Below are positions 3,542-42,395 of a DNA stretch of 64,000 nucleotides, one piece after another. The first letter of the stretch is position 1; every line of letters begins with the position of its first letter. The DNA is taken from assembly GCF_963921235.1 (NCBI RefSeq), contig NC_086107.1, forward strand, positions 112,470,001 through 112,534,000, written 5' to 3'. Origin of the DNA: Mobula hypostoma. Lineage: Eukaryota. Under the pieces are notes generated by a model that saw only the letters and a list, made by a program, of their open reading frames with translations, searched no databases and was not told the DNA's origin. The translations under genes and the position numbers were made by a program.

Positions 3542-3596
<55 letters not shown>

Positions 3597-15947: not shown

Positions 15948-16825
15948 TGTTACGAGAATACACATAAAATTAAGATGTTTGCTGGCCTGGGCTAGCATCA
16001 GTGGCATCAGCAGTTGGTCTGCCACCTGCCCTCAGGGGAAGGAGAGATAAGGAACAATGGAGCAGCGTCTGGAGATGTGTAATGAAGGGATGTGGGAGGA
16101 AGAGCTGTCTGGAGCGGCTCCCCCCTTTGAGCCCTGAACTGTTTGAAGTGATGGACAGGCGATACCCCAGCAGGGGGATAAAAAGGGACAGGTTCGCTAA
16201 GACAGACACACACGCCACCCGAGGTAACGAGACCCTGGAAGCGGTGCGCCTCTCACGAGTGGTGAGAAGTACCGGACAACGCCCAGGGTGGAAAGGTACG
16301 ATCAGCGGGAACCCGGTGTGTGTCCGCCCTTGCCTGGGTGCCGGGTTCACTGCAGAGGATCGACCGCATCTGGAGGAGGGGTCACAGTCGGTGACCTCAG
16401 GTGACATCACCAAGGACCCGCCCAAAAGCTGTTTGTGAGCCATCTCGCTGGTCTGTGAGCCATCCCGCTGGTCTGTGAGTGAAGCCGTTCTGAATGATGA
16501 GTTGTTCCTATTCTATCTCTCTCTTCCCCCACGTTGTCCACCGCCATGACAACGATTACTGCGAACTGAACTACAAACTGGACTGAACTTTGAGTCATTT
16601 TGAAATTGGTCATTTACCCCTAGACAACGATAGAGCTTGATTGATGCTGTTATCTTAATTCTGTGCACATGTGTGGTTATCATTGTTGAATTGTTGCATT
16701 TATTATCCTTTCGATTACTGTGTTGCTTGTTTCTTTAATAAAACTTTCTTAGTTCTAGTACTCCAGACTCCAACTGAGTGATCCATTTCTGCTGGTTTGG
16801 CAACCCAGTTACGGGGTACGTAACA
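15948..16825 (+). repeat. 5' LTR (878 bp)
   Basis: Starts TGTTACGAG, ends GTAACA; AATAAA at 16737-16742; direct repeat of 20025-20883. Confidence 0.95.
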
Positions 16826-16829
16826 TAAG

Positions 16830-16855
16830 TGGGGTTCTCGTCCGCGATTTTGAAC
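16830..16855 (+). promoter_or_regulatory. Primer-binding site, tRNA-Pro-like
   Basis: TGGGGTTCTCGTCCGCGATTTTGAAC, 4 nt after the 5' LTR; resembles the tRNA-Pro 3' complement TGGGGGCTCGTCCGGGATTTGAAC. Confidence 0.75.
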
Positions 16856-16924
16856 GCTAAATTTGGGACGGAGTAAATTGATTGGGTTAAAATTCCCGAA
16901 AGAAAGAAAAGACAAACAGCAGAA

Positions 16925-19852
16925 ATGGAGGTTGAGGAATTTATAAAGGCGCCGACCTTGGAGGCATTAGAGGATGCCAGGAAATCGGAATTGATAGCTG
17001 TGGCCAAACGGGTGAATCTTGCTAAGGTGAAGTCGACAATGAGGAGAGAGGAGATACACAGAGCTATTGTAGAGCACTATGTATCTAAAGGTGTGTTTCC
17101 CCAAGGTGAGCTGGGGGTGGTGTCTATTGAAAAACCTGCTGGAGACGCGGTACAGGTACAGCTTGAAAAACTGAGACTCGAGCACGAGTTCCGGGTACGG
17201 CAGTTAGAAAGGCAGGAGAAAGAGAGAGAGTTAGAAAGGCAGGAGAAAGAGAGAGAGTTAGAAAGGCAGGAGAAAGAGAGAGAGTTAGAAAGGCAGGAGA
17301 AAGAGAGAGAGTTAGAAAGGCGGGAGAGAGAGAAAGAGGTAGAAAGGCAAGAGAGAGAAAGACAGTTGGAGAGAGAAGAGAGAGAGAGGGACAGACAGTT
17401 GGAGAGAGAGGAGAAACAGAGGGAAAGGGAATTTGAGCTGGAGAAGTTAAAGATAAGGGCCGAGCAGGGGCTCGTGCCGAACCAAGGTGGAGGGTTCCGG
17501 GCGACCCAGGAGGTTAGGCTGGTTCCCCCATTTGACGATACCGATGTGGATCGGTACTTTCTCCACTTCGAAAAAGTAGCTATAAGTCAGGACTGGCCGA
17601 GGGATAAGTGGGTTGTTTTACTTCAGAGTGTACTGAAAGGGAAAGCCCAACAAGCTTACTCCGCTTTATCCGCGGAAGATGCCCAGAAGTATGAGGTGGT
17701 GAAGGAGGCCATCCTCAGGATTTATGAGTTGGTCCCGGAGGCATACCGGCAGAGGTTCCGGAATGCGAGGAAGCGGTGGGACCGCACGTATTTGGAGTTT
17801 GCTCGTGAGATGCAAACATATTGTGAGCGTTGGTGCGCCTCGAAAGGGGTAGAGGGGGATTATGACAGACTGCTGCAGCTGATTCTGATTGAGCAGTTTA
17901 AAGGTTGTGTCCCTGAGGGTATGAGACCCTACCTCGATGAGAAAGAGGCAGCCACGTTAGCCGCAACTGCTAAGTTAGCGGATGAGTATGCTTTGACGCA
18001 TAAAATGAAGTTTGCCCCGAGTAAAGGCTACCAGAAGGGTAGTCAGGACGGCGGGGAGAGTCCGCCGGAAAAGTCAGAAAGTAAGCCGGGGACTAGTGAA
18101 AAGGATAAGGTAGACCGGGAGCAGCCTGGTAGGAAGTCTCCTGGGGTCGTCTGTTATAATTGTGGGAAAGTCGGACACTTTGCGTCCAGGTGCTTTGCCC
18201 CAAGAAAGGAGACGGGGAAAGGAAAAGCGGAAATTTTGAATGGCTGTATTGAGCTGTTAAGCGAACCGCTAGGGAAGGACAGGTCTGAAAAAGTCCAGGA
18301 AGGGCGCGAGAGGTTTATCTTGGCCGGATTGGTGTCAGTGAAGGAGGGGTTAAAACCAGTTCCAGTGCGGATCTGGAGAGACACGGGAGCGTGTCAGTCA
18401 CTAATACTGAAGAGTGTATTAGAGTTTAGCTCAGAGACCCAGACTGGGGAGGTAGAGGTCAAAGGTGTTGGGGAAGGGACAGAGTCAGTCCCTTTGCACC
18501 AGATACATTTACAGAGCAACCTGGTCTCTGGACTAGTCACGATTGGGGTGAGGTCCGAATTACCGATGAAAGACGTGGAAGTCTTGCTCGGTAATGACAT
18601 CGCCGGAGGGATCGTGTTCCCAGTCGTGAGATTGACGGGTCAGCCTGCCAGCATGGAGGCCCCGCCCGCGATGGTGAATTTGGCTGAAACATTTCTGCCA
18701 ACCTTGTATGAGACAGGGTGTAGTGAGATAAGAGGTAGTGAGGGAGCTGGGACGGACGTAGCAGTAGCCAGGAAAGAATTTGTGCAGACGCAGGAGCGAG
18801 ACGAGGGGCTGATGGTTTTTGCCGAGACCGCTCTCTCTGACACAGCCTTGACAAGCTATTGTGCGGATGAGGAAGTGCTAAGGAAGAAAGGGAAATCAAG
18901 TACAGCATCCGCAGATGAGGAGTGGGGGGTGGTGCAAAAGAGTTACGGGGATGAGGTTTTTAACATGGCCCACGAGGTACCCCCCGGTGGACATTTTGCG
19001 GTGCTGGGGGAAACAGTTGGTGGAATCATGAAAGAGATTTACCGGCTGCCCAGGGGGAAGAATGTTATTGATCATGACCGACGCGAACTGAGACGGTCAC
19101 CGGCTTTTGATATGCTAACAAACCTAGTCGGTGTTAGCGTGGAAATCAATGAAGCTAGGGGCCCCCTGCTAAGAGGAAAAAACCATTTTGAAAAGATTAG
19201 GATGGGATCGGTCAGATGGGAGAAGGCTATTCTTTTGGCCAGGTCTACTGATAAGGTCTCTCCCTTAATCCCCGAAGGAGTAATTAAACGACTCGCACCT
19301 ATGTGTTTGATTGTCCCGAGGAAATGCAAAGAACTGGGACGTTGGGTGATTGTGGTTACAATAGGGCAGCCAAGCAAACAACACCCATATTTTTCGAGTA
19401 ATTCAGTGACTAAAGGGCTGATGAACACAGAGGTGTGTATTGGCAATTTAATACGGCTGTCTGAAGCCAGCGTGATAGTGAGCCTTGGAAAAAATGAATT
19501 CGGCCACACGAAGGTCACTTACCTGGGAATTGTGGTGACACAGGGGCAGCTGGCAGTGATGCAAGCTACAGTGCAGGCTATCGCTGACCTCCCAACCCCG
19601 ACAGACAAGAGGGCCCTCAGAAGGCTTTTGGAGATGGTGGGGTACTGCAGGAAGTTTTGCAATAACTCTGCGGTCAATACCCGTCCCCCTCCTACTAAGC
19701 CCTTGCGAGGGAAAATTGAGTCGGAATGGGACGACCCTTGTTGTTGTGGTCCGGGACAAAACCAAATGAGAGGTTACATTGGTCGCAATTCATCAGTGTT
19801 TTTGGCCACTATGAAGTTTGCTGAGTTGGAGCCTGGTCTAAGGGATTATTAA
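16925..19852 (+). CDS. Retrotransposon Gag-protease polyprotein (975 aa) with in-frame integrase/RT remnants
   Basis: Coiled-coil repeat; SCAN-like capsid (YFLHFEKVA...YELVPEAYRQRFR...LILIEQF...LADEY); CCHC knuckle CYNCGKVGHFASRC (18152-18193); protease RDTGA (DTG 18380-18388) and LLGND; partial integrase zinc motif AHEVPPGGH (18968-18994); RT C-terminal/thumb remnant VTYLG...LRRLLEMVGYCRKF. No YxDD, RNase H or DDE core seen. Confidence 0.88.
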   Translation: MEVEEFIKAPTLEALEDARKSELIAVAKRVNLAKVKSTMRREEIHRAIVEHYVSKGVFPQGELGVVSIEKPAGDAVQVQLEKLRLEHEFRVRQLERQEKERELERQEKERELERQEKERELERQEKERELERREREKEVERQERERQLEREERERDRQLEREEKQREREFELEKLKIRAEQGLVPNQGGGFRATQEVRLVPPFDDTDVDRYFLHFEKVAISQDWPRDKWVVLLQSVLKGKAQQAYSALSAEDAQKYEVVKEAILRIYELVPEAYRQRFRNARKRWDRTYLEFAREMQTYCERWCASKGVEGDYDRLLQLILIEQFKGCVPEGMRPYLDEKEAATLAATAKLADEYALTHKMKFAPSKGYQKGSQDGGESPPEKSESKPGTSEKDKVDREQPGRKSPGVVCYNCGKVGHFASRCFAPRKETGKGKAEILNGCIELLSEPLGKDRSEKVQEGRERFILAGLVSVKEGLKPVPVRIWRDTGACQSLILKSVLEFSSETQTGEVEVKGVGEGTESVPLHQIHLQSNLVSGLVTIGVRSELPMKDVEVLLGNDIAGGIVFPVVRLTGQPASMEAPPAMVNLAETFLPTLYETGCSEIRGSEGAGTDVAVARKEFVQTQERDEGLMVFAETALSDTALTSYCADEEVLRKKGKSSTASADEEWGVVQKSYGDEVFNMAHEVPPGGHFAVLGETVGGIMKEIYRLPRGKNVIDHDRRELRRSPAFDMLTNLVGVSVEINEARGPLLRGKNHFEKIRMGSVRWEKAILLARSTDKVSPLIPEGVIKRLAPMCLIVPRKCKELGRWVIVVTIGQPSKQHPYFSSNSVTKGLMNTEVCIGNLIRLSEASVIVSLGKNEFGHTKVTYLGIVVTQGQLAVMQATVQAIADLPTPTDKRALRRLLEMVGYCRKFCNNSAVNTRPPPTKPLRGKIESEWDDPCCCGPGQNQMRGYIGRNSSVFLATMKFAELEPGLRDY

Positions 19853-20012
19853 TAACACGTGTAAAAGGAACAGAAAATGTGATGACTGTCTGTCAAGGTG
19901 TTGACAATTTCAAATTCTCTGTATTAGCTAAATAACTGTTAAAGATGTATATTGTGTATGTATCAGATAATGTAGTCATGTTTGTAATTTTTACCTCCCG
20001 GTAAAAATCCTT

Positions 20013-20024
20013 AAAGGGGGGAAG
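20013..20024 (+). promoter_or_regulatory. Polypurine tract
   Basis: AAAGGGGGGAAG directly abuts the 3' LTR. Confidence 0.9.
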
Positions 20025-20883
20025 TGTTACGAGAATACACATAAAATTAAGATGTTTGCTGGCCTGGGCTAGCATCAGTGGCATCAGCAGTTGGTCTGCC
20101 ACCTGCCCTCAGGGGAAGGAGAGATAAGGAACAATGGAGCAGCGTCTGGAGATGTGTAATGAAGGGATGTGGGAGGAAGAGCTGTCTGGAGCGGCTCCCC
20201 CCTTTGAGCCCTGAACTGTTTGAAGTGATGGACAGGCGATACCCCAGCAGGGGGATAAAAAGGGACAGGTTCGCTAAGACAGACACACACGCCACCCGAG
20301 GTAACGAGACCCTGGAAGCGGTGCGCCTCTCACGAGTCGGTGGGAAGTACCAGACAACGGCCAGGGTGGAAAGGTACGATCAGCGGGAACCCGGTGTGTG
20401 TCCGCCCTTGCCTGGGTGCCGGGTTCACTGCAGAGGATCGACCGCATCTGGAGGAGGGGTCACAGTCGGTGACCTCAGGTGACATCACCAAGGACCCGCC
20501 CAAAAGCTGTTTGTGAGCCATCTCGCTGGTCTGTGAGTGAAGCCGTTCTGAATGATGAGTTGTTCCTATTCTATCTCTCTCTTCCCCCACGTTGTCCACC
20601 GCCATGGCAACGATTACTGCGAACTGAACTACAAACTGGACTGAACTTTGAGTCATTTTGAAATTGGTCATTTACCCCTAGACAACGATAGAGCTTGATT
20701 GATTCTGTTATCTTAATTCTGTGCACATGTGTGGTTATCATTGTTGAATTGTTGCATTTATTATCCTTTCGATTACTGTGTTGCTTGTTTCTTTAATAAA
20801 ACTTTCTTAGTTCTAGTACTCCAGACTCCAACTGAGTGATCCATTTCTGCTGGTTTGGCAACCCAGTTACAGGGTACGTGACA
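20025..20883 (+). repeat. 3' LTR (859 bp)
   Basis: Starts TGTTACGAG, ends GTGACA; AATAAA at 20795-20800; differs from the 5' LTR by about 7 substitutions, a 1-nt indel and a 20-nt indel (counted by eye). Confidence 0.95.
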
Positions 20884-23202: not shown

Positions 23203-25599
23203 TTCTCAGTGGCCTCTCTATGAGATACACCTGCTCGTTAATGCAAATATCTAACCAGCCAATCATGTGGCAGCAACTCAATGCATAAAAGCATGCAGAC
23301 ATGGTCAAGAGGTTCAGTTGTTGTTCAGACCAAACATCAGAATGGGGAAAGAAATGTGATCTAAGTGACTTTGACCGTGTAATGATTGTTGGTGCCAGAT
23401 GGGGTGGTTTGAGTATCTCAGAAATGGCTGATCTCCTGGGATTTTCACACACTGCCCGTCTCTAGAGTTTACAGAGAATGGTGGGAGAAATTTTAAAAAA
23501 ACATCCAGTGAGCAGCAGTTTTGTGGGTGAAAATGCCTTGTTAATGAGGGAGGTCAGAGGAGATGGGCAGACTGGTTCAAGCTGACAGGAAGGTGACAGT
23601 AAAAGACTGGTAAAGACAAATGTAGGTCCCCTACAGACAGAAACAGGTGAATTGATTATGGGGAGCAAGGACATGGCAGACCAATTGAATAATTACTTTG
23701 GTTCTGTCTTCACTAAGGAGGACATAAATAATCTTCCAGAAATAGTAGGGGACAGAGGGTCCAGTGAGATGGAGGAACTGAGCGAAATACATGTTAGTAG
23801 GGAAGTGGTGTTAGGTAAATTGAAGGGATTGAAGGCAGATAAATCCCCAGGGCCAGATGGTCTGCATCCTAGAGTGCTTAAGGAAGTAGCCCAGGAAATA
23901 GTGGATGCATTAGTGATAACTTTTCAAAACTCATTAGATTCTGGACTAGTTCCTGAGGATTGGAGGGTGGCTAATGTAACCCCACTTTTTAAAAAAGGAG
24001 AGAGAGAGAAACCGGGGAGTTATAGACTGGTTAGCCTAACGTCGGTGGTGGGGTAACTGCTGGAGTCAGTTATCAAAGATGTGATAACAGCACATTTGGA
24101 AAGCGGTGAAATCATCGGACAAAGTCAGCATGGATTTGTGAAAGGAAACTCATGTCTGACAAATCTCATAGAATTTTTTGAGGATGTAACTAGTAGAGTG
24201 GATAGGGGAGAACCAGTGGATGTGGTATATTTGGATTTTCAAAAGGCTTTTGACAAGGTCCCACACAGGAGATTAGTGTGCAAACTTAAAGCACACGGTA
24301 TTGGGGGTAAGGTATTGATGTGGATGGAGAATTAGTTAGCAGACAGGAAGCAAAGAGTGGGAATAAACGGAACCTTTTCAGAATGGCAGGCGGTGACTAG
24401 TGGGGTACTGCAAGGCTCAGTGCTGGGACCCCAGTTGTTTACAATATATATTAATGACTTGGATGAGGGAATTAAATGCAGCATCTCCAAGTTTGCGGAT
24501 GACACGAAGCTGGGTGGCAGTGTTAGCTGTGAGGAGGATGCTAAGAGGATGCAGAGTGACTTGGACAGGTTGGGTGAGTGGGCAAATTCATGGCAGATGC
24601 AATTTAATGTGGATAAATGTGAAGTTATCCACTTTGGTGGCAAAAATAGGAAAACAGATTATTATCTGAATGGTGGCCGATTAAGAAAAGGGGAGGTGCA
24701 ACTAGACCTGGGTGTCATTATACACCAGTCATTGAAAGTGGGCATGCAGGTACAGCAGGCGGTGAAAAAGGCGAATGGTATGCTGGCATTTATAGCGAGA
24801 GGATTCGAGTACAGGAGCAGGGAGGTACTACTGCAGTTTTGCAAGGCCTTGGTGAGACCACACGTGGAGTATTGTGTGCAGTTTTGGTCCCCTAATCTGA
24901 GGAAAGACATCCTTGCCATAGAGGGAGTACAAAGAAGGTTCACCAGATTGATTCTTGGGATGGCAGGACTTTCATATGAAGAAAGACTGGATGAACTGGG
25001 CTTGTACTCGTTGGAATTTAGAAGATTGAGGGGGGATCTGATTGAAACGTATAAAATCCTAAAGGGATTGGACAGGCTAGATGCAGGAAGGTTGCTTCCG
25101 ATGTTGGGGAAGTCCAGAAGGAGGGGCCACAGTTTGAGGATAAAGGGGAAGCCTTTTAGGACCGAGATTAGGAAAAACTTCTTCACACAGAGAGTGGTGA
25201 ATCTGTGGAATTCTCTGCCACAGGAAACAGTTGAGGCCAGTTCATTGGCTATATTTAAGAGGGAGTTAGATATGGCCCTTGTGGCTACGGGGATCAGGGG
25301 GTATGGAGGGAAGGCTGGGGCGGGGTTCTGAGTTGGATGATCAGCCATGATCATAATAAATGGCGGTGCAGGCTCGAAGGGCCAAATGGCCTACTCCTGC
25401 ACCTATTTTCTATGTTTCTATGTTTCTATGTAACTCAGATAACCACACGTTACAACAGTGGTTTGTAGGAGAGCATCTCTGAATGTACACCATATCAAAC
25501 CTTGAAGTGGATGGGCTACAGCAACAGAAGACCAGGAACATACACTCACTGGCCTCTTTATTAGGTACAGGAGGTAGCTGATAAAGAGGCCACAAAGTA
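23203..25599 (+). mobile_element. Non-autonomous Tc1-like element, split by the CR1 insertion
   Basis: TIR related to CACTCAGTGGCCACTTTATTAGGTAC at both ends; degenerate Tc1 N-terminal HTH coding sequence. Confidence 0.8.
23601..25430 (+). mobile_element. Young 5'-truncated CR1/HER1-type LINE (RT domain to 3' tail), inserted in a Tc1 derivative
   Basis: One reading frame (ORFs 23652, 24081, 24357) broken by two nonsense codons (24054-24056, 24333-24335); RT motifs QHGF, YLDFQKAFD, QGSVLGP, FADD; (TTTCTATG)n tail. Confidence 0.95.
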
Positions 25600-33425: not shown

Positions 33426-34300
33426 ATTGACATGCCAATTCAAAAGCAATCAAATTTCAATTCCTGTGCGAGTCTGTGTACACAGGATCGTGTAAATGCA
33501 GGCATGAAAAAACTACGTGTGCAAAAATGTTTTTTATGTATATGTATGGTATAAGTCAACGCTGGGCTCAGGATAAATGTTCCCAGAGTTAGCAGCTAGC
33601 TGGTGTCTGCTGGCTCAGTTCAGACCTAGTTTCTGATTGACTCCAGCCAGACCAGGTTAACCTGCCCCATGGGGAAGTGTGGGAAGGGGAGCAGGATTCC
33701 TCCATTTTCAGGGTAGGCCGAGCCAAGCCCAGTTCACTTGCTGTGGGAATGATGAAGTGCGACAAAAGAGGGGATGATGAGGTTTCCTCTAAGCTTGGGC
33801 CTTAGCCTTTATCTGCCCTCATCATTTATCCTCGTGAGGTGGACTCATTCCCAGTTCCCATCCAGGTGACCAGTACATCAGCTTAAGAGGGCGATTAACA
33901 ATTTTCAGGGTGGGAATCTGAAGAAGGAGGCCAGGTTAAAAGGGACAAGTGTTGGCTCGTAGACACCAATCTGCCGTATTCAATTTACTGGGACCAGATA
34001 TTAAATTCTAGACATTTTCTTATGAAAACCAATTCAGCCTGAGATAGATTTTGTTCCACATTATTACTCTGGAAACTGTAACCACTTAGAAACATTATCC
34101 CATGGAGAATTGCTGAGTGTTAAATCTTAGTAAGGAAATTCCTCCCCCCACCTTGCAGATCATCTCAAGGACCCAGTGGAGGTCAACCAAAGAACGCCAT
34201 CGCATTCCACCCATCCACTCCCCTCCCGCCAATCTGTACTCAGACTATGGACCTGCTTGCATCCCGCTTCTGTTTGGGCTGGAGGGACGTCATGTGGTAC

Positions 34301-34495
34301 CTTTGCGGATACTTCCGTCAGACGAGTGTTCAAAGTCTCCGGTGGTCAACAGGAAGCAGGCTCTGTCCCGGGCGTACCTCTCCCTTCCTCCAGGCGTGAC
34401 CGGCTGGTTCTCCTCTGGCGACAGGGCCTGGTCAATGGTAGGACAATCCTCATTGGCCAAAGCAGCATTGGCGGCGTCCCCGTTCTGCTTGGGAT
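34301..34495 (-). CDS. KCNC3: Internal/penultimate coding exon of a Kv3 (Shaw-type) voltage-gated K+ channel, cytoplasmic C-terminus; best match KCNC3 (Kv3.3)
   Basis: Manual minus-strand translation gives (D)[64 protein letters not shown]. This closely resembles the Kv3.3 segment [23 protein letters not shown]...[30 protein letters not shown], recalled from memory. AG acceptor at 34497-34496 and GT donor at 34300-34299; 195 nt, phase 1 at both ends. Family assignment is stronger than paralogue assignment. Confidence 0.85.
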
Positions 34496-34498
34496 CTT

Positions 34499-34513
34499 AC
34501 ACACACACACGCA

Positions 34514-34579
<66 letters not shown>

Positions 34580-34727
34580 CAGACACACACACACGCACAC
34601 ACATACACACGCACACACAGACACACACACACGCACACACATACACACGCACACACAGACACACACACACGCACACACATACACACGCACGCACAGACAC
34701 ACACACGCACACACAGACACACACACA

Positions 34728-34765
<38 letters not shown>

Positions 34766-34767
34766 CA

Positions 34768-34823
<56 letters not shown>

Positions 34824-34828
34824 CAGAC

Positions 34829-34863
<35 letters not shown>

Positions 34864-34935
34864 CACACACGCACACACACACACACACACGCACACACAT
34901 ACACACGGACGCACAGACACACACACGCACACACA

Positions 34936-34974
<39 letters not shown>
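34499..34974. repeat. Long imperfect (AC)n/(GT)n microsatellite
   Basis: About 476 bp of AC units with GC, AT and AG variants. Confidence 0.98.
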
Positions 34975-34981
<7 letters not shown>

Positions 34982-35683
34982 GAAAGAACACACATAGGCA
35001 GGTTATTGGTTAGACTCGCCAAACAGGCCCTCAGAAACAGACTGCAGATAACCCCAAGGACCTCAATGTCCTCCATCCCAGATCCTTAAAGGTGAAAGGG
35101 TAACAAAGCAAGTCAATTCCTAATGCTTATAAATGGGTCATGGACACCAATTGAAGGATTTAATTTATTGATGCCAGGCATTAAATTCTAGAGGAATGCT
35201 ACCGACTGGTGTTTTCCAGGCTGAAGGAGTTTGTGCTGAGGGTGAAGCCACCACAAAGACTTGGTGGGAAGGACCATAGTACAGGGTTCTTCTGCTACTG
35301 GAGTTTAGAAGAACAAGGGGAGATAGACCATAAGACATAGGAGCAGAATTGGGCCATTTAGCCCATCGAGTCTGCTCCGATATTCAATCATGGCTGATCC
35401 TTTTTCCCCTCATCAATGAAACCTTATCGAATATTGAACGGCCTGGATAAAGTGACGCGGAGAGGATGTTTCTTAAAGAGAGGGAATCTAAGACCAGAGG
35501 GCACTGCCTCTGAATAGAATAGAAAGGCCTCCCTTTAGAACACAGACGATGAGGAATTTCTTTAGCTAGAGGATCATGAATCTGTGTAATTCATTGTCAT
35601 ACAGAGCTGTGGAGGCCAAGTCGTTGGGTGTATTTAAAGCAAAGGTTGATAGGTTCTTGACTAGTCAGGCCATCAAAGGTTAT

Positions 35684-36345
35684 GGTGAAAAAGGCGAACG
35701 GTATGCTGGCATTTATAGCAAGAGGATTCGAGTACAGGAGCAGGGAGGTACTACTGCAGTTGTACAAGGCCTTGGTGAGACCACACCTGGAGTATTGTGT
35801 GCAGTTTTGGTCCCCTAATCTGAGGAAAGACATCTTTGCCATAGAGGGAGTACAAAGAAGGTTCACCAGATTGATTCCTGGGATGGCAGGTCTTTCATAT
35901 GAAGAAAGACTGGATGAACTGGGCTTGTACTCGTTGGAATTTAGAAGATTGAGGGGGGATCTGATTGAAACGTATAAGATCCTAAAGGGATTGGACAGGC
36001 TAGATGCGGGAAGATTGTTCCCGATGTTGGGGAGGTCTAGAACGAGGGGTCACAGTTTGAGGATAGAGGGGAAGCCTTTTAGGACCGAGGTTAGGAAAAA
36101 CTTCTTCACACAGAGAGTGGTGAATCTGTGGAATTCTCTGCCACAGCAAACTGTTGAGGCCAGTTCATTAGCTATGTTTAAAAGGAAGTTAGATATGGCC
36201 CTTGTGGCTACAGGGGTCAGGGGGTATGGAGGGAAGGCTGGGTTCTGAGTTGGATGATCAGCCATGATCATAATAAATGGCGGTGCAGGCTCGAAGGGCC
36301 GAATGGCCTACTCCTGCACCTATTTTCTATGTTTCTATGTTTCTA
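35684..36345 (+). mobile_element. Young CR1/HER1-type LINE 3' fragment, inserted in an older CR1 3' end
   Basis: Near-identical to 24761-25430; (TTTCTATG)n tail; older LINE resumes on both sides. Confidence 0.93.
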
Positions 36346-39360: not shown

Positions 39361-39913
39361 AAACATAGAAACATAGAAACATAGAAAATAGGTGCAGGAG
39401 TAGGCCATTCGGCCCTTCGAGCCTGCACCGCCATTTATTATGATCATGGCTGATCATCCAACTCAGAACCCCGCCCCAGCCTTCCCTCCATACCCCCTGA
39501 CCCCCGTAGCCACAAGGGCTATATCTAACTCCCTCTTAAATATAGCCAATGAACTGGCCTCAACAGTTTCCTGTGGCAGAGAATTCCACAGATTCACCAC
39601 TCTCTGTGTGAAGAAGTTTTTCCTAATCTCGGTCCTAAAAGGCTTCCCCTTTATCCTCAAACTGTGACCCCTCGTTCTGGACTTCCCCAACATCGGGAAC
39701 AATCTTCCTGCATCTAGCCTGTCCAATCCCTTTATGATTTTATACGTTTCAATCAGATCCCCCCTCAATCTTCTAAATTCCAACGAGTACAAGCCCAGTT
39801 CATCCAGTCTTTCTTCATATGAAAGTCCTGCCATCCCAGGAATCAATCTGGTGAACCTTCTTTGTACTCCCTCTATGGCAAAGATGTCTTTCCTCAGATT
39901 AGGGGACCAAAAC
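39361..39913 (-). mobile_element. Young CR1/HER1-type LINE 3' fragment, inserted in a Penelope-like terminal repeat
   Basis: ORF 39463-39846 matches the same C-terminus; (CATAGAAA)n tail on +; AAACA at both junctions. Confidence 0.93.
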
Positions 39914-40499: not shown

Positions 40500-42395
40500 C
40501 TATATCTTGGCATTCAATACCATCATGTCTTCAAAACTAATCAATAAGCCTCAAGACTTAACCCTTGAATGCCTCCATGTGCAATTGGATCCTTGATTTC
40601 CTCACTTGCAGACCACAGTCAGTTCGGATTGGCGACAACATCTCCTCTATGATTTCCAATGGTACAGGTGCATCACAAGGTGATCTTCTTGCTTTACACT
40701 TATGACTGTGTGGCTAAGCACAGCTCCAATGCCACATTTAACTTTGTCGATAACACCACATTCATAGACTGAATGAAAGGTGGTGATGAACCAGCATACA
40801 GGAGTGATATTGAAAATTTGAGTCAATGGTGAAACAACTACAACCTCTCACTCAGTGTCAGCAAGACCAAGGAGCTAATTATATATAGGCAAGGTTGCGT
40901 CACAGCCTGATACGGAAACACCAGAGTCCTTGAATGGAAGATCCTACAAAAAGTAGTGGGTGCGGCCCAGTCGGTCACGTGTAGAGCTCTCACAACCATT
41001 GAGCACGTCTACACGGAGCGCTGTCGCAGGAAAGCAGCATCCATCATCCGGAACACCCATCACTCAGGCCATGCTCTCTTCCTGTTGCGGAAATCAGGAA
41101 GAAGGAACAGGAGCCTCAGGACTCACACCACCAGGTTGTGAGGAGGATGCTAAGAGGATGCAGGGTGACTTGGATAGGTTGGGTGAGTGGGCAAATTCAT
41201 GGCAGATGCAATTTAATGTGAATAAATGTGAAGTTATCCACTTTGGTGGCAAAAACAGGAAAACAGATTATTATCTGAATGGTGGCCGATTAGAAAAAGG
41301 GGAGGTGCAACGAGACCTGGGTGTCATTATACACCAGTCATTGAAAGTAGGCATGCAGGTACAGCAGGCGGTGAAAAAGGCGAATGGTATGCTGGCATTT
41401 ATAGCAAGAGGATTCGAGTACAGGAGCAGGTACAGTTGTACAACTGCAGTTGTACAAGGCCTTGGTGAGACCACACCTGGAGTATTGTGTGCAGTTTTGG
41501 TCCCCTAATCTGAGGAAAGACATCCTTGCCATAGAGGGAGTACAAAGAAGGTTCACCAGATTGATTCCTGGGATGGCAGGACTTTCATATGATGAAAGAC
41601 TGGATGAACTGGGCTTATACTCGTTGGAATTTAGAAGGTTGAGGGGGGATCTGATTGAAACGTATAAAATCATAAAGGGATTGGACAGGCTAGATGCAGG
41701 AAGATTGTTCCCGATGTTGGGGAAGTCCAGAACGAGGGGTCACAGTTTGAGGATAAAGGGGAAGCCTTTTAGGACCGAGATGAGGAAAAACTTCTTCACA
41801 CAGAGAGTGGTGAATCTGTGGAATTCTCTGCCACAGGAAACAGTTGAGGCCAGTTCATTGGTTATATTTAAGAGGGAGTTAGATATGGCCCTTGTGGCTA
41901 AAGGGATCAGGGGGTATGGAGGGAAGGCTGGTACAGGGTTCTGAGTTGGATGATCAGCCATGATCATAATAAATGGCGGTGCAGGCTCGAAGGGCCGAAT
42001 GGCCTACTCCTGCACCTATTTTCTATGTTTCTATGTTTCTATGTTCAGGATCAGTTATTACCCCTCAACCATCAGGCTCTTGAACCAGAGGGGATAACCT
42101 CACTCAACTTCACTTGCCCCATCACTGAACTGTTCCCACAACCTATGGACTCACTTTCAAGGACCCGTCATCTCATGTTCTTGATATTTGTTACTTATTT
42201 ATTTATTTTCATTATTTCTTTTTGTATTTGCACAGTTTGTATTTTTTTTGCACTGTAGTTGAACACCCAAGTTGGTGCGGTCTTTCATTGATTCTATTAT
42301 GGATTTATTGAGTATGACCACAAGAAAATGAATCTCAGGTTGTATATGGTGACATATATGAGAATAAAGTTTATTTTGAACTTTTGAACTTTGCA
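40500..42395 (+). mobile_element. Rex1/Babar-type LINE remnant (RT to 3' UTR), split by the young CR1 at 41137-42045
   Basis: Degenerate [34 protein letters not shown], and C-terminal KAASII...H.GHALF...SGRR...THTTR. Confidence 0.8.
41137..42045 (+). mobile_element. Young CR1/HER1-type LINE 3' fragment, inserted in a Rex1/Babar LINE
   Basis: Near-identical to 24529-25430; GTT at both junctions; host LINE text CACCACCAGGTT...CAGGATCAGTTATTAC resumes after the tail. Confidence 0.93.

Follow-up and report, generated by a model that had tools for sequence, protein, structure and literature searches.

A long TG repeat between a candidate distant branch point and the acceptor of a probable Kv3.3 tail exon in the ray Mobula hypostoma

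How is an intron branched when several hundred bases of a dinucleotide repeat stand directly against its 3' splice site? The question arises at an internal, frame-preserving exon of 195 nt (34495-34301, minus strand) in a 64,000-nt stretch of the Mobula hypostoma genome (NC_086107.1, positions 112,470,001 to 112,534,000), hereafter the window, which contains no N. Because a 476-nt TG repeat abuts the acceptor of this exon, the branch has to form either some 500 bases away on the upstream side or at a weak position within the repeat. Each of these layouts has been described before, and the ray site is an extreme example.

Gooding et al. (2006) used AG exclusion zones to define exons with distant branch points, the mapped cases lying 100-400 nt away; by their estimate only one fifth to one half of the zones of at least 100 nt are true, and a zone of 369 nt made by a repeat is given as a counter-example (PMC1431707). 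According to Taggart et al., 8% of human branches are more than 60 nt away and are linked to exon skipping, and their contribution is only moderate (PMC5378181). The other layout was described by Lin et al. (2016), in whose account GT-repeat acceptors of teleosts and lamprey depend on an AC partner further upstream; when the last 35 nt of the zebrafish model intron were mutated, the branch in use was lost (PMC4691745). Our literature search, with most subscription journals outside it, found no publication on this locus or on distant branches made by microsatellites.

The exon, its gene and the use of its acceptor

The peptide encoded by the exon's 65 codons matches, at 100% identity, residues 512-576 of proteins from Mobula and Hypanus that are annotated 'KCNC1-like', a position in the cytoplasmic tail. 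A 16-row tree, built with named KCNC1 and KCNC3/kcnc3a rows and none named KCNC2 or KCNC4, groups the 'KCNC1-like' proteins of rays and sharks with the named KCNC3/kcnc3a rows and splits them from the named KCNC1 rows (100/100). Because the tree joins the ray proteins to KCNC3/kcnc3a, apart from KCNC1, the host gene is likely the KCNC3 (Kv3.3) orthologue. The original prediction had spoken of a Kv3.3 C-terminal exon: identity and tree agree with the Kv3.3 tail, but the exon is internal and not the last one. Proteins of cartilaginous fishes, frog and lizard that are named 'KCNC1-like' (P0002, P0063, P0074, P0064) also cluster with KCNC3 in this tree. The exon peptide had no match in Pfam or in the PDB. 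Since no further Kv3 exon was found in the 64-kb window, the intron upstream exceeds 29.5 kb.

At its other end the exon is bounded by the donor GTACCA (34300-34295, minus strand), after which RNA-like contigs take several downstream continuations. Reading through this donor (34300-34290) gives G-T-T-stop, as in the annotated Hypanus isoform X7 (P0075).

Four of 24 listed sequencing runs were compared across 33430-34512. One of them, X13, is probably RNA, a guess on our part: its contigs break off at either edge of the exon and carry on into other coding exons. It shares its organism label with the best DNA runs, and all five of its records are at least 99% alike. Its record 4 is a contig of 1,860 nt whose final 197 letters correspond to 34497-34301. 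Read by hand, the upstream loose end of this contig encodes QEEIIEINRA, the peptide that precedes the exon in ray proteins. As the upstream exon likewise ends in AG, the only cut that respects the AG rule is 34496/34495. The predicted junction at 34495 is thus present in one probable-RNA contig, and the AG used there is, as anticipated, the first one after the putative branch motif. The acceptor is real and used.

No other acceptor for the exon was seen in the X13 contigs. We discarded entry at an upstream acceptor (AG 35016, 35031 or 35043) and retention of the repeat, because the X13 contig departs from the window sequence at the acceptor. This contig is unbranched from the upstream exons through the acceptor; in four short X13 records the branching is on the donor side, and one of them enters the DNYKDSPVIS tail of isoform P0070. 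Within the contigs of this one run, an assembly of which drops rare forms, skipping and other acceptors do not appear to be common, and alternative splicing appears to occur downstream of the exon.

Two candidate branch positions in an AG-free zone

The predicted anatomy was reproduced on the minus strand in each of its coordinates. The last AG upstream (35016-35015) lends its G to the heptamer GTCTAAC (35015-35009), which contains the candidate distal branch motif CTAAC (35013-35009). Its candidate A, at 35010, is 515 nt from the exon (-515) and 6 nt inside the 5' edge of the AG-free zone; weaker candidate As lie nearby at 35003 and 34995. A 14-nt pyrimidine tract, TTCTTTCTCTTTCT (34988-34975), begins 22 nt past the distal A, although it may alternatively be a (TC)-like flank of a compound microsatellite. 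It is followed by an imperfect (TG)n array (34975-34500), 476 nt in length, devoid of AG and made up of duplicated sub-motifs, with 238 units (204 TG, 17 CG, 10 TC, 5 TA and 2 TT). The array ends at the acceptor TAAG (34499-34496), with an A at -3 and, as predicted, no adjoining pyrimidine tract.

The zone comprises 517 AG-free bases, 92% of them TG dinucleotide microsatellite. No other AG-to-AG distance on either strand of the 64-kb window reaches the 519 nt measured here; the runner-up has 261 nt. Preceding a used acceptor, the zone exceeds the 100-150 nt taken as the mark of distant-branch (AGEZ) exons, and a branch consensus and a pyrimidine tract are present near its 5' edge, though the tract is short. 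[quoted passage not shown] The original prediction described this layout correctly overall and overlooked one A inside the repeat, at 34520 (-25), in the poor consensus TGTGTAT (34525-34519).

How exceptional is the upstream stretch? We counted positions with a branch motif 20-50 nt upstream, no AG between and at least 13 pyrimidines out of 14. Among 127,355 other positions, 71 have this layout with CTAAC, 133 with yTRAy and 365 with yTNAy, or 0.06-0.3% overall. Given the pyrimidine run alone, the motif is present in 6%, 11% and 30% of cases, respectively. With a crude U2-pairing score, A35010 reaches 10 and ranks among the top 2.4% of As on the minus strand; the five As of the repeat all have a score of 5, close to the median, and no U at -2. 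In addition, the 38 non-repeat bases past the upstream AG are AG-free themselves, which happens by chance in 11% of cases. Altogether, the stretch looks like a real 3' splice signal, one that would fit a working distant branch and a relic alike.

We tentatively favour a distant branch at -515, with the repeat as a tolerated spacer. A motif at the very start of the zone, followed by a tract, is the layout used by Gooding et al. (PMC1431707) to call distant branch points; it is rare in the comparison above, its A outranks those in the repeat, and splicing takes the first AG after it. Several points weigh on the other side. The relic of an ancestral acceptor would look identical. The share of true zones in that study, and its false positive made by a repeat, bear directly on a zone of this composition. 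A position of -515 is beyond the mapped 100-400 nt quoted in 2006, and the tract has just 14 nt. Finally, distal branches go with skipping (PMC5378181), and the X13 contig is unbranched.

The A at -25 opens a second reading, a close rival though somewhat more doubtful: the UG tract itself would serve as the 3' signal, with a branch at this A or at another base close by and recognition by exon definition, and CTAAC and its tract would be a relic or a microsatellite flank. In zebrafish cep97 the branch lies within the last 35 nt of the GT-repeat intron, and in human APOA2 splicing can be directed by GT repeats that precede the AG (cited in PMC4691745). The absence of a skipping branch in run X13 is in keeping with this reading. 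Its difficulty is the site: TGTGTAT has no U at -2 and a median score, and the motif containing this A is copied five times along the array, so that it may be an ordinary interruption. Of the branch predicted at GTCTAAC, what stands is that it is the best candidate by sequence; an A at normal distance, here and in two relatives, competes with it.

Elsewhere in the window, a frame of 991 aa (16877-19852) carries a CCHC knuckle, a DTG protease-like motif and a 27-nt tandem repeat, and is flanked by sequences similar to each other (~15970-16512 and 20047-20671). The region 15970-20671 resembles an LTR retrotransposon remnant. Four LINE-like 3' fragments (35684-36345, 24761-25428, 39366-39913 and 41370-42041) are 95-96% identical; three of them have 8-base tandem tails (TRF) and one is found 670 nt upstream of CTAAC. 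A 60-nt direct match, 77% identical, flanks the exon (33953-34012 and 35134-35192).

The acceptor in relatives and the homologous exon in other vertebrates

Two further runs, X9 and X17, similar to the window in the downstream intron at roughly 95% and roughly 90%, have TG repeats directly against the acceptor. Their contigs end within the tract, 24-30 nt in, so the lengths of at least 27 and at least 24 nt are lower bounds; run X5 spans the 13 repeat bases that were compared. Because these relatives have TG at the AG too, the tract is not a private insertion of the ray. The predicted expansion of the repeat between tract and acceptor is amended to this extent: TG at the AG is common to the relatives, and only the length may be specific to the lineage.

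The visible tracts of X9 and X17 each contain a single A, at -19 and -27. All three species with readable letters, the window included, hence have an A at normal branch distance, the two readable relatives resembling the window in this respect; such an A is what a branch near -25 would use. From the frequency of TA units (5 of 238), the chance of an A within -18 to -35 is about 0.17 per lineage. For three lineages together it is about 0.005 if the events are independent and 0.17 if the A was inherited once, and the three As may indeed reflect one inherited event.

The lower bounds in the relatives also bear on the length of the array. It could be an assembly inflation or a rare allele, the usual tract having a few dozen bases and CTAAC being only slightly distant; the near-identical duplicated blocks of the array would agree with this. 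We hold it to be the least probable of the readings considered here: the window has no Ns, and run lengths and blocks vary between copies as they do in real slippage.

More distant homologues were sought in a metagenome scan, whose 536 pattern matches came down to two loci (L001 and L002), both teleost-like and neither from a cartilaginous fish. L001, the other teleost paralogue, has an ordinary AG-free zone of 40 nt. L002, kcnc3a-like, has a zone of 531 nt (L002:1463-1993) before the homologous exon, AG-free and 82% pyrimidine; 278 of 20,000 base shuffles of it were AG-free. Motifs of the yTRAy type occur in L002 at -541, -495, -369 and -355. It may be a better candidate for a distant branch than the ray site. 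A Logan ORF of another fish (P0051) implies about 420 AG-poor bases before the exon.

P0051 comes from a survey with 62 matches, of which 51 were listed, many of them ORFs that read from the intron into the exon. Among those listed, 90-200 pyrimidine-rich bases are implied by a few, while the majority look ordinary and have no long pyrimidine run. None of the 51 has a run of Cys-Val (at most two CV/VC pairs), so a TG tract at the acceptor is seemingly uncommon in bony vertebrates. No recognizable shark or ray intron sequence appeared in this survey; in rays, such read-through is blocked by the in-frame TAA of TAAG. Long zones thus recur at this exon without being general, and the exon may tolerate them. 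For a distant branch in the ray, L002 and P0051 count in favour, and L001 and the majority of the read-through ORFs against.

Shark annotations (Heptranchias, Mustelus) include forms that skip the exon (P0066, P0069) and forms that enter it at an inner AG (P0068, P0031), which suggests a leaky acceptor in sharks; P0062 is also among the shark proteins with skipped or inner-site forms. Neither skipping nor inner-AG entry was found in eight ray proteins (P0002, P0003, P0020, P0063, P0070, P0074, P0075, P0076), which come from the listed part of a 68-member cluster.

The repeat as spacer, partner or switch

Is the absence of AG selected? Of the six single-base changes possible in a TG unit, only T to A creates AG, so the repeat by its nature accounts for most of the AG-free length. 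The original prediction had listed GC, AT and CT as interrupting variants that never create AG, and had read this as possible selection. These variants are present, but the list was incomplete: TT and one CC dinucleotide occur as well. The 34 variant units repeat a small number of motifs and go back to an estimated 4-8 or so independent substitutions. In the window's other arrays, four of nine isolated interruptions change TG to AG, against none in the main array, a faint point in favour of a distant branch. With the window's own interruption spectrum, a small sample whose uncertainty was included, the probability of finding no AG is 0.03-0.13; it rises to 0.23-0.66 if neutral rates of 1/6 or 0.1 are assumed. 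A range of 0.03 to 0.66, depending on the null and for so few substitutions, does not bear out selection against AG, and the missing AG among the variants is a hint only.

The array has predicted room for eight pUG folds or 21 non-overlapping (GU)6 sites. Like the pUG-fold sequences of PMC12962679, PMC12276007 and PMC13558559, it contains runs of at least 12 units with G in register, and U-to-C changes are tolerated in those sequences. It differs from them in having a G replaced in 17 of its 34 variant units, and replacing a G abolishes the pUG fold in vitro (PMC12962679); on this ground we rejected selection for pUG folds. Folding is slow, with a half-life of at least 13 min (PMC12276007), and is prevented by TDP-43 (PMC13558559). 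The parts of these three papers that we drew on describe no role for a pUG fold in bridging a branch to its AG.

Arrays complementary to the UG array lie on the transcript strand, across the exon from it. The first (AC)n array (33425-33364, minus strand), about 880 nt past the donor, has a predicted duplex energy of -110 kcal/mol. A second, imperfect one (33108-33075, minus strand) and a third, (AC)17 (32651-32618, minus strand; predicted duplex -62.8 kcal/mol), also lie downstream of the exon. Three of the window's four transcript-strand AC arrays of at least 30 nt are hence clustered 0.9-1.7 kb past the donor; the remaining one is at 3547-3594, and none is upstream of the exon. A predicted fold pairs one AC array with the UG array across the exon; computed with no shuffle control, it is not used here as evidence of pairing, which is expected in silico of any complementary repeats.

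The position of these arrays matters for a bridged intron, in which AC repeats behind the upstream donor would pair with the UG array, join the splice sites and bypass U2AF2. As in the (AC)m-(GT)n introns of PMC4691745, GT repeats abut the ray acceptor in place of a pyrimidine tract, and the class, reported in teleosts and lamprey, is argued to be ancestral. Nevertheless, the ray intron of more than 29.5 kb departs from the tendency of the class to moderate lengths, its array goes far beyond the more than 14 units of the model intron, and its AC arrays sit across the exon, an arrangement that zebrafish avoids within 200 nt; the word 'shark' is absent from the main text of that paper. The 29.5 kb upstream of the exon contain a single AC run, of four units only. 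We consider a bridged intron quite unlikely.

A regulated switch, in which both branches would be used and the UG array, through TDP-43/CELF, pUG folding or AC pairing, would set inclusion by tissue or allele, also seems to us unlikely, if a little less so. It would profit from an exon that preserves the frame, from the shark isoforms, from the three AC arrays within 1.7 kb downstream, one of them paired in the predicted fold, and from the precedents of CFTR and APOA2. In these (UG)m(U)n and (GT)16 acceptors (PMC4691745, PMC1524908, 10.1101/2021.12.21.472683), UG repeats likewise occupy the 3' splice site, where they are bound by TDP-43. Their tracts have about 11-16 units against 238 in the ray, however, and in CFTR the U tract lies between the repeat and the AG, while the ray tract lies upstream of the repeat. 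The exon is present in all eight ray proteins of the listed part of the cluster, run X13 displays neither a branch before the acceptor nor a back-joint, and both the ease of AC-UG pairing in silico and the slow, TDP-43-sensitive folding of pUG sequences speak against a switch. The original proposal that repeat length tunes inclusion finds no support: the X13 contig is unbranched at the acceptor, with branching only downstream of the exon.

A more elaborate version would make the exon the carrier of a conserved distant-branch design whose spacer was rebuilt from various simple sequences, UG in rays (about 520 nt) and CU-rich sequence in a teleost (about 530 nt). The UG array would be active, pUG folding or AC pairing collapsing the 515-nt gap in competition with TDP-43, and length and folding would set splicing. 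We regard this as very unlikely; if true, the locus would be a natural test case for intronic pUG folds in splicing.

Our preferred reading, a distant branch behind a tolerated spacer, can be put as a sequence of steps. In the ancestral site the branch motif would have been followed by the pyrimidine tract, a short run of TG and then TAAG, and slippage with block duplication would have grown the TG run to 476 nt in the ray lineage. U2 would keep branching mainly at CTAAC (-515), aided by the tract behind it, and the second step would take the first downstream AG, which stays the correct one because a TG array seldom gains AG. The repeat, probably coated by TDP-43 or CELF, would then be a tolerated spacer and not a demonstrated regulator. 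Such a site would resemble alpha-tropomyosin exon 3, PTB exon 11 and GABBR1 exon 23 (PMC1431707) in its long AG-free zone, its motif and tract at the edge, the lack of a good motif near the acceptor and the use of the first AG. It would differ from them in a zone that is 92% microsatellite, in its short tract, in a branch beyond 100-400 nt and in that alternative use of the exon is not seen in rays.

The ray locus is a clean natural experiment, either outcome of which falls within known kinds and leaves textbook splicing unchanged. A lariat near -25 would extend GT-type acceptors to the cartilaginous fishes, with branching on a very poor motif, and would warn that AG-free zones made by repeats mislead. 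A lariat at -515 would mean that the mere growth of a microsatellite is enough to give rise to a distant branch, beyond the classically mapped 100-400 nt, with the exon still included.
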